A stretch of DNA of 64,000 nucleotides from Promethearchaeota archaeon. GTDB lineage: Archaea > Asgardarchaeota > Lokiarchaeia > Sigyniarchaeales > SOKP01. The position numbers and the translations under genes were made by a program. Below are positions 32,636-35,600 of this stretch, piece by piece. Position 1 is the stretch's first letter. Each line of letters starts with the position of its first letter. The stretch lies in the NCBI GenBank assembly GCA_019057795.1, contig JAHLWS010000070.1, positions 128,001-192,000 on the forward strand. The letters are read 5' to 3'. Under the pieces are notes generated by a model, which was not told the origin of the DNA, did not search any database, and was given only the letters and a program-made list of their open reading frames with translations.

Positions 32636-35600
32636 GCCACACACTTGCGCTGTTGAGAATGGCGGGCTGAATACCTCGCCCGAAAGCTTGGCACGTACAC
32701 CCCCATCTCACCAAACCCGTCTTCTACGGGTGCGCTCGTCTCGCTCCCACGGTTCGCGTCACCGCGCCCCGCTCTCGTCTCTCCACTCGCCAAACATTCC
32801 GCTTATAGCCTTTTCTTTTTACGCGCTTTTACACGCGCAAGCAGGTCGTCATCCGGCCCTCACAGGGGGACCTTAACAACCAAACTAAACGAAATAATCG
32901 ACTCGCTTCAAGAACAATATGAAGTAAGATTGGATGACTCTTTTCGGGATCTGCTTCGTGCTTAGATGCTTTCAGCACTTATCAGTTAGCGCGTAGCTGC
33001 CCGGCGATGCCTTGTCAGACAACCGGTACACCAGAGGCGCCGGCAAAATGTTCCTCTCGTACTGATTTTCCCTTTCCCTCAGTCATCCCACATACCTGGT
33101 AGATAGAATCCGACCTGTCTCACGACGGTCTAAACCCAGCTCACGTTCCCTTTTAATGGGCGTACAGCCCCACCCTTGGGAGTTATGCGCACGCGAACCG
33201 ATAAGACTCGCATTATGTGCGCTCCCAGGATAGGAAGAGCCGACATCGAGGAAGCAAGCCACGAGGTCGATAGGAACTCTTACTCGTGACAACTCTGTTA
33301 CCCCCGGGGTAATTTTTCTATCACCTCAACCAGCCACACGAGCACAGTTAAGGATCGCTAGACCAGGCGTTAGCCTCAGGATTCCTTGGTAATCAGAATC
33401 CAGTCAGGCCAGCTTTTGCTCTTAAACTCTTCAGCGGATTCCTGACCCGCCTGAGCTGACCTTTGGTTTCTCTAGATATCTTTTCTAGAGAGAGCCGCCC
33501 CAGCCAAACTGCCCACCTGCGGATGTCCGACGCTTGCGCGCCGTTAGTGATTTCAAGAAGGAAAGCCGGTATTCCAAAGTTGCTCCGCCGTAACCGAAAT
33601 TACGGCATCTACGCTCCCGACTACACTCTGTATCCAGCTCAAGACCACAACAACAGGCTGCAGTAAAACTCCACGGGGTCTTCTCGTCCCACCAGGTATC
33701 TCCGGACCGTTCGCCGGAGTGTAATTTCAATCGTCAGAAGGCTGGGACAATAGGGAGAACGTTGGACCATTCATGCACGTCTGAACTTACCAGACAAGGC
33801 ATTTGGCTACCTTAAGAGAGTTATAGTTACTCCCGGCGTTTAGCAGGACTTACTCGGGTTGTAACCCGGATTGATCAAACTGCCACTGGCCAGGTTTCAG
33901 CCACTGTAAACAAGCTTTCGCTCTATCAGTGACCTATGTTTTTATTAAACAGTCGTCCCCCCCTAGTTACTGCGACTTGTGAGCCCCCGCACACTGCCGA
34001 AGCTGCGTGAAGAAGTTCGCAAGCAAGCCTTATCCCAAAGTTACGGCTCTAATTTGTCGATTTCCCTAGCCTCCTTTTCACGAATACGCCTTAGGCTACT
34101 CACCTTGGGGCACCTGTGTCGGTTCTGGGTACGAACACGGTGTTTCTTGCTGTTGCCTTTTTAATAAATCCTGGGATCAGCGAAACCTTCCACAATTGGA
34201 TGGCTATTCATGCTTTGGGCTGGGTCTAAGTTTTACACTATTTACCAGCTTTATTACATTTAAATAGGGAGATATTCGACGACCCTATTTCACTTACCCG
34301 GAATTGTTAGCACACAGCCGTGCGTTACCGCTATTTGTAGCACCGTGGTACAGGAATATAAACCTGTTTCCCTTTCGCGCATACCAGTTAAGGTTGCGCT
34401 TAGGATCGACTAACTCTTCGCTGACGACGCATTGCGAAGAAACCCTTGCCCTTTCGGCGGATGGGATTCTAACCCATCTATGCTTTTACTATTACCAGGA
34501 TCTGCGGTCCAGGACGGTCCACAGGAACTCACGCACCTGCTTCTGCCCAACCTGGACGCTCCCCTACCAGATCACGGGATTCTTCCACCCGTGCTCTTGG
34601 GTCTCGGTGGCAGATTTAAGCCCCGTCCATTTTCGGGGCTATATTTCTCGGCAAATGAGTTGTTACACACTCGTTAGGGAGTGGCTACTTCTATACCTAT
34701 CCTTTTGCTGTTTTAGAAATATAACGCCCTTTCTTTTAACACTTAACCTGCACTTAGGGACCTTAACCCAAGTCTAGGTTGTTCCCTTCTCGGCAATGGA
34801 CTTTACGCCCACTAACCCGTCTCCCAGGGTCTACAGTGCTAGCAGATTCGGAGTTTAAGAGCGAAGCGAAGAATTTCTTCTCCTTACTTTGCAATTAGTG
34901 CTCTACACCACTAGCGACCTCGCCTGAGGATTGGCTGACACCAACTTCGGGGAGAACCAGCTATCACCGATCTAGATTAGCCTTTTGCTCCTATTCCCAG
35001 TTCATCCAAGAGAATTGCACATCATCACTGGTGCAGACTTCCATCACCCTTTCGAGCGACTTCATCTTGACCAGGAATAGATCGACCGGCTTCGGGTATT
35101 ACAGCAGTGACTTTAGGCCCTTTGAGACCATTCTTCTGGTCTAACTCCTTAGAAGGATTCACTCCGGCCCTTTAGAGTAGCTGAACTACTCCGTGGTACG
35201 GAGATCGTCCTAATGTGATAATTAGATTGCAAGAATATTGGTTTCCCTATGCCTACGTGCCGCGAGGCACTTAAGCTCGCCACTACTATAAACTCCCTGG
35301 CCAATGATTCCAGACTGATGATGCAACCCTAGTCCTCTGAACTCTGATATTCTGTCACCAGAACTCATTCGTCCAGAATCTATCCTTTCAGGCTGCATCC
35401 TTACTAAACTATTTGGTTTCAAGCGCTTTTCACGACCCTTCCGGGTTTCTTTTCATCTTTTGCTCACGCTACTATTTCACTATCGGTCTTGGGACATATT
35501 TAGATTTGCCAGCGTGTATCTGGCACATTCGTACGAGAAAACTATCCCGCACTACTCGGGATACCTCGCAGCAGCCTTCCAAACTACGGTTAAGCGGCTA

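Follow-up and report, generated by a model that had tools for sequence, protein, structure and literature searches.

A predicted mini-intron of the bulge-helix-bulge type in helix 91 of 23S rRNA in a Lokiarchaeial family

Among known classes, the element described here comes closest to the bulge-helix-bulge introns of less than 50 nt that form a hairpin and lie in 16S rRNA genes of Thermoproteales (Jay and Inskeep, 2015; PMC4496867). The present insert, located in the loop of helix 91 of a 23S rRNA gene, resembles these introns in being ORF-less, in consisting of one hairpin plus a splice motif, in occupying a conserved rRNA site and in its patchy distribution among relatives. It differs from them in its Asgard (Promethearchaeota / Lokiarchaeia-type) host, in residing in the 23S gene and in the helix 91 loop, and in the A.C mismatch found in most variants together with a competing slipped register. 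The 23S introns of Staphylothermus marinus are likewise small, protein-free and processed by the archaeal splicing enzyme (PMC3608112); the same enzyme is presumed for the helix 91 insert, whose host is Asgard and not crenarchaeal. Non-canonical tRNA introns of Asgard archaea, among which a relaxed class with three of four central pairs is counted, share the lineage and the presumed enzyme with the helix 91 insert, but the preprint describing them (bioRxiv 10.64898/2026.10.13.758758) concerns tRNA hosts and leaves rRNA unmentioned. The expansion segments ES9 and ES39 of Asgard archaea (Penev et al., 2020; PMC7594248) are also extra sequence within LSU rRNA; they were detected in transcripts and occupy known surface sites, whereas the helix 91 insert is situated in a functional loop and carries a splice motif. 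In the literature searched, no published bulge-helix-bulge rRNA intron was found in Asgard archaea or at helix 91. The S. marinus 23S introns that Kjems and Garrett are said to have described in 1991 are reportedly small and situated at sites other than the helix 91 loop.

The window, which is the whole stretch of 64,000 nt that was analysed, contains an archaeal LSU rRNA gene:

32633..35966, minus strand: 23S (LSU) rRNA gene (Rfam RF02540, 2545 bits, model positions 1-2987)

This gene, of 3334 nt compared with the 2987 positions of the Rfam model, is the sole copy found in the assembly, with a single match across the whole genome (4.95 Mb, 87 contigs). In helix 91, 39 nt separate GGGAG (33222-33226) from CUCCC (33178-33182; RNA sense, minus strand), and the coordinates agree with the count given in an earlier note on this DNA. 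Local alignment to the model, which has 3 nt at this point, revealed 34 inserted nt, placed in the loop of the hairpin immediately 5' of the A-loop. The insertion site is one that we take, from our own count on the E. coli sequence, to correspond to about E. coli position 2533-2535. The minimum-energy fold of the region comprised a 6-bp helix and a 7-bp hairpin (-28.7 kcal/mol, z = -4.4), and none of 200 shuffled sequences folded equally well. The CAUAA (CATAA in DNA) repeat with a spacing of 30 nt that the earlier note pointed out is real, and each of the two helices through which it proposed the insert to fold exists; two bases are common to both helices, however, and their full co-formation is impossible.

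A search of 154 genomes of the same order, with inspection of the helix 91 site at each locus, revealed an empty site in 12 genomes of the family, of which half belong to the same genus and the other six to three further genera; in these genomes the loop has 9 nt and reads CGCACAUAA or CGCACCUAA. Inserts of 28-58 nt were located at exactly the same point in 20 genomes from six genera, and the other families of the order had an unrelated 8-nt loop without insert. The usual loop of 8 nt assumed in the earlier note is thus valid for other Lokiarchaeial families and not for the intron-less members of this one. The empty 9-nt sites of relatives also fix the window insert at exactly 30 nt, in place of the approximately 31 nt proposed before, and its predicted spliced product is the empty allele observed in these orthologues that lack it. 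Family genomes and metagenome contigs together provided 32 distinct insert variants (28-58 nt, mostly 29-30 nt), which are mutually related, so that counts based on them overstate independence.

When 185,579 species genomes were scanned with a pattern for helix 91 inserts of 10-40 nt, 21 real matches were obtained, all from this archaeal group, and none outside it; across the sequences searched, the insert was confined to one Lokiarchaeial family. One of the 21 bears the label Odinarchaeota, although its sequence type is the same. Seven bacterial matches from the scan of species genomes were rejected as helix 91 inserts, being runs of N or duplicated segments. A contig from a MAG labelled Odinarchaeota (L082, JBHLQA010000164.1) carries a Lokiarchaeial-type helix 91 intron near-identical to those of two Promethearchaeota MAGs, and is probably mis-binned or mislabelled. 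The metagenome scan yielded 13 insert-bearing and two empty contigs, with no spliced contig from the species of the window; the two empty contigs share just 93-96% identity with the window 23S and therefore belong to other species and are uninformative on splicing.

One frame fitted all 32 variants. It consists of an exon helix of 5 bp, a central helix of 4 bp with a 3-nt bulge at either end, and an intron hairpin, and its elements in the window are as follows:

33185..33214, minus strand: predicted bulge-helix-bulge mini-intron of 30 nt in the helix 91 loop (empty allele restored in all 32 variants, and frame scan of the window)
33222..33226, minus strand: outer (exon-exon) helix, 5' strand GGGAG, pairing with 33178-33182 (formed in 32/32 variants, with two compensatory pairs)
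33178..33182, minus strand: outer helix, 3' strand CUCCC (formed in 32/32 variants)
33217..33220, minus strand: central helix, exon strand GCAC (invariant except for GCAU in 2 variants, with the pair kept)
33214..33216, minus strand: 5' bulge AUA, with the predicted cut after U, between 33215 and 33214 (third-base variation)
33191..33213, minus strand: intron hairpin, with a 9-bp stem abutting the 5' bulge and a 5-nt loop (covariation)
33187..33190, minus strand: central helix, intron strand GCGC, forming 3 pairs and an A.C mismatch with GCAC (comparison of variants)
33184..33186, minus strand: 3' bulge AUA, with the predicted cut after U, between 33185 and 33184 (middle-base variation)

The central helix of this frame pairs the exon bases GCAC with the intron's 3'-terminal four bases before the 3' bulge. 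Its intron strand was GCGC or GCGU in 24 of the 32 variants and the fully pairing GUGC or GUGU in eight, and the bulge-helix-bulge geometry was present in every one, with four of four central pairs in the latter eight and three of four (A.C) in the window. An A at 33183 opposite a C at 33221 forms a C.A apposition that adjoins the 3' bulge and was present in every variant. When nine shifts were compared, the canonical frame came out top in 30 of the 32 variants, with mean pair numbers of 3.25 (of 4) in the central, 3.78 (of 4) in the inner and 4.0 (of 5) in the outer helix, and pairing was lost across the 32 variants when the 3' boundary alone was slid. Among the six shifts of the window that preserve the product, only the canonical frame formed all three helices.

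The position of the cuts was deduced from variation within the bulges. The 5' bulge was AUA, AUU, CUU or CUA, and since its third base varies (A, U), a cut later than the second base is excluded; the 3' bulge was A-N-A in 31 variants and UUA in one, and the variation of its middle base (U, G, A or C) excludes a cut earlier than the second base. The empty alleles, unlike these bulge bases, do not vary. By this comparison, a cut following the second base of each bulge would be the sole one that gives every variant the conserved loop, with a product equal or nearly equal to the empty allele, and in the window the predicted exon junction after removal would be ...GCGCACAU joined to AACUCCC. Cleavage after the second bulge base is the standard position of the splicing endonuclease. 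The expected mature loop of the family has 9 nt and not 8, and the 9-nt register is the canonical bulge-helix-bulge cut; it matches the empty allele of the family exactly and is the correct one, having been wrongly set aside in the earlier note together with registers leaving 7 or 11 nt, all for missing the value of 8.

Covariation was determined with twelve 30-nt variants aligned without gaps, a set of related sequences whose numbers overstate independence: 91.2% of cells were paired in the canonical structure versus 26-52% in slid-partner controls, and none of 500 shuffles matched the observed covariation score. In the same 12 variants of equal length, all nine pairs of the intron hairpin changed on both sides, with 93.5% of cells paired, and the hairpin sequences were almost wholly different between genera. 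Regarding fold energy, in the eight GUGC/GUGU variants the canonical motif either was itself the minimum-energy fold or differed from that fold by no more than 0.4 kcal/mol. The A.C-mismatch class (24 of 32 variants, window included) favoured a slipped register by 0.7-4.2 kcal/mol; in the window this register, consisting of a 6-bp helix with 5-nt bulges, was 3.8 kcal/mol more stable than the canonical cleavable frame.

Genes for both enzymes on which a bulge-helix-bulge intron depends were found in the genome, which encodes two splicing-endonuclease (EndA) paralogues (PF01974, each about 200 aa) and one RtcB ligase (PF01139). The catalytic domains of the two paralogues lie at G000 C69:74212-74436 and C74:72339-72587. 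One of the EndA paralogues has its nearest relatives among the catalytic subunits of crenarchaeal two-subunit enzymes, an architecture inferred in 44 of 60 Asgard genomes (bioRxiv 10.64898/2026.10.13.758758). In this genome, scored 100% complete, Aragorn detected just 18 tRNA genes, 10 of them with introns, and non-canonical introns probably conceal many more. The transcript that holds the mini-intron also has a pre-23S processing stem with a canonical motif (AAGC/GCUU, bulges AAU and AGA):

35987..35993, minus strand: pre-23S processing stem, leader side, AAGC plus the 3-nt bulge AAU (leader-trailer cofold, -90.1 kcal/mol)
32603..32609, minus strand: pre-23S processing stem, trailer side, GCUU plus the 3-nt bulge AGA (leader-trailer cofold)

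On the evidence of sequence comparison, we consider it likely, with a probability of about 0.8, that 33185-33214 is a 30-nt ORF-less archaeal bulge-helix-bulge intron that is excised and whose exons are joined. Between the micro-intron and the new expansion segment that the earlier note had left side by side, the first is supported by the empty alleles, the shared frame, the cut position and the covariation, and also by the inserts at other 23S sites in the genus, the enzymes encoded and the processing-stem motif; the second finds no support in the comparison. The A.C mismatch of the central helix, the more stable slipped register and the C.A apposition count against the intron. Cleavage and ligation, which we infer, would proceed as follows. 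In the pre-rRNA, the bases at the 3' end of the intron would pair with the loop bases GCAC of the 5' exon, producing a central helix of four positions between two 3-nt bulges (AUA on each strand), flanked on its two sides by the helix 91 stem and the 9-bp intron hairpin. Cleavage by the splicing endonuclease would follow the second base of both bulges, with RtcB then joining the exons. This would leave helix 91 in its normal form, with CGCACAUAA as its 9-nt loop, and release a small intron that is probably circular. At its tip, helix 91 is paired to the tip of helix 89, while the other face of helix 91 touches the sarcin-ricin loop (PMC3614586), in line with the proximity stated in the earlier note; given these tertiary contacts, in the only 23S gene assembled, and the lack of helix 91 inserts of 10-40 nt elsewhere in the 185,579 genomes, removal is to be expected.

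The tree of the flanking exons showed empty sites scattered among insert-bearing lineages, a pattern that fits several precise losses, or repeated gains. One genome of the same genus (L009 / L046, G023:C26) has a 58-nt helix 91 insert made of two hairpin modules, each of which occurs singly in 30-nt inserts of other genomes. One module resembles the hairpin type of the window's closest relatives (p <= 0.003; p = 0.04 for the window itself), and the other resembles the commonest type in other genera, with a score reached by none of 300 shuffles. In view of this two-module insert, the 30-nt forms look like deletion derivatives of a longer ancestor. The intron has the look of a remnant, reduced in size and passed on vertically, with precise loss in several lineages.

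Larger inserts were found at other sites of the 23S gene in the genus. Genome L049 (G007:C218) has inserts of 1095 nt (55-1149) and 1235 nt (1454-2688), at positions 1850 and 2155 of the window 23S numbering, with ORFs of 309 and 370 aa; these ORFs occur only in large inserts at other sites, and no helix 91 insert has one. The large inserts gave no match to group I models. In L033 (G008:C3), a 31-nt insert at about position 1851 of the same numbering lies 2 nt downstream of the G007 large-insert site and is a second mini-intron site in the genus, absent from the window. A perfect 4-bp central helix was present in all three of these inserts.

Additional irregularities were observed in the 23S genes of the family. 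Inserts of 116-773 nt split the match near 23S position 2848 (helix 93 region; about 33119 in the window) in several genomes, and inserts of about 125-136 nt occur near position 2655-2665 (about 33300-33312 in the window) in others; both are absent from the window. In the helix 89 region, five family contigs break off. Several related genomes have extra places that match the final ~130 nt of the 23S gene (window 32633-32776), including G020:C34:50262-50390 and four places in G012:C101. One same-genus MAG contig (L018 / L022, G015:C263) has bacterial-type 23S sequence in this region, which is probably contamination.

Retention of the insert in mature 23S rRNA, as a lineage-specific micro-expansion of helix 91, is an unlikely alternative to the spliced intron. 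It would agree with the most stable fold of the window, which differs from the canonical motif, and expansion segments are a known trait of Asgard LSU rRNAs (PMC7594248); however, the insert pairs with conserved loop bases rather than lengthening the stem, and its interior varies freely, in contrast to its conserved 3' end and bulges. The precise repeated loss suggested by the flanking-exon tree, the tertiary contacts made by the helix 91 loop and the lack of any other helix 91 expansion in the 185,579 species genomes also argue against retention. An equally small probability is shared by two variants in which the slipped-register class, including the window, would not be simply spliced: either the insert would be kept in some mature ribosomes, as an extension of helix 91 beside the sarcin-ricin loop, or its removal would be a timed assembly step, in which the intron hairpin, similar to the tip of helix 89, would prevent helix 91 from docking with its two partners, helix 89 and the sarcin-ricin loop, before endonuclease cleavage.

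Endonuclease products are the usual substrate of RtcB, which the genome encodes, helix 91 is continuous in the intron-less relatives, and the sequence gives no sign of missing ligation; these observations make it quite improbable that the insert is cut out with its ends left unjoined, which would result in a fragmented 23S rRNA, or in a permuted one opening at helix 91 after circularisation at the processing stem, even though the window's processing stem has the canonical motif and permuted or circular archaeal 23S rRNAs are reported (PMC7758197 and PMC12918454). An assembly or chimera artefact, named in the earlier note as a threat to either of its readings, can be discarded with near certainty, since 20 related genomes, as well as 13 metagenome contigs, originating from different projects, carry structurally equivalent inserts at the same point, despite the frequent misassembly of rRNA regions in MAGs and a run of N precisely at this site in one relative.

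Three further candidates were rejected. A length of 30 nt is far too short for a group I intron, and Rfam detected LSU rRNA alone in the window. The helix 91 inserts do not qualify as mobile homing-endonuclease introns, all of them having 28-58 nt and no LAGLIDADG or other endonuclease ORF. Comparison with the neighbouring exon sequence (helix 89) did not identify the insert as a copy of it (p about 0.9 for the window, and p 0.13-0.14 for the two closest variants).

As a predicted spliced mini-intron, the helix 91 insert extends the short hairpin-type rRNA introns, so far described mainly from Crenarchaeota, to a Lokiarchaeial family as a new lineage and to a new site, the loop of helix 91 next to the factor-binding centre. 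Such inserts break metagenome-derived rRNA assemblies and would pass wrongly for expansion segments in models of the Asgard ribosome. The 32 natural variants represent a substrate series on the tolerance of the Asgard splicing endonuclease, for example towards the A.C mismatch and the slipped register.
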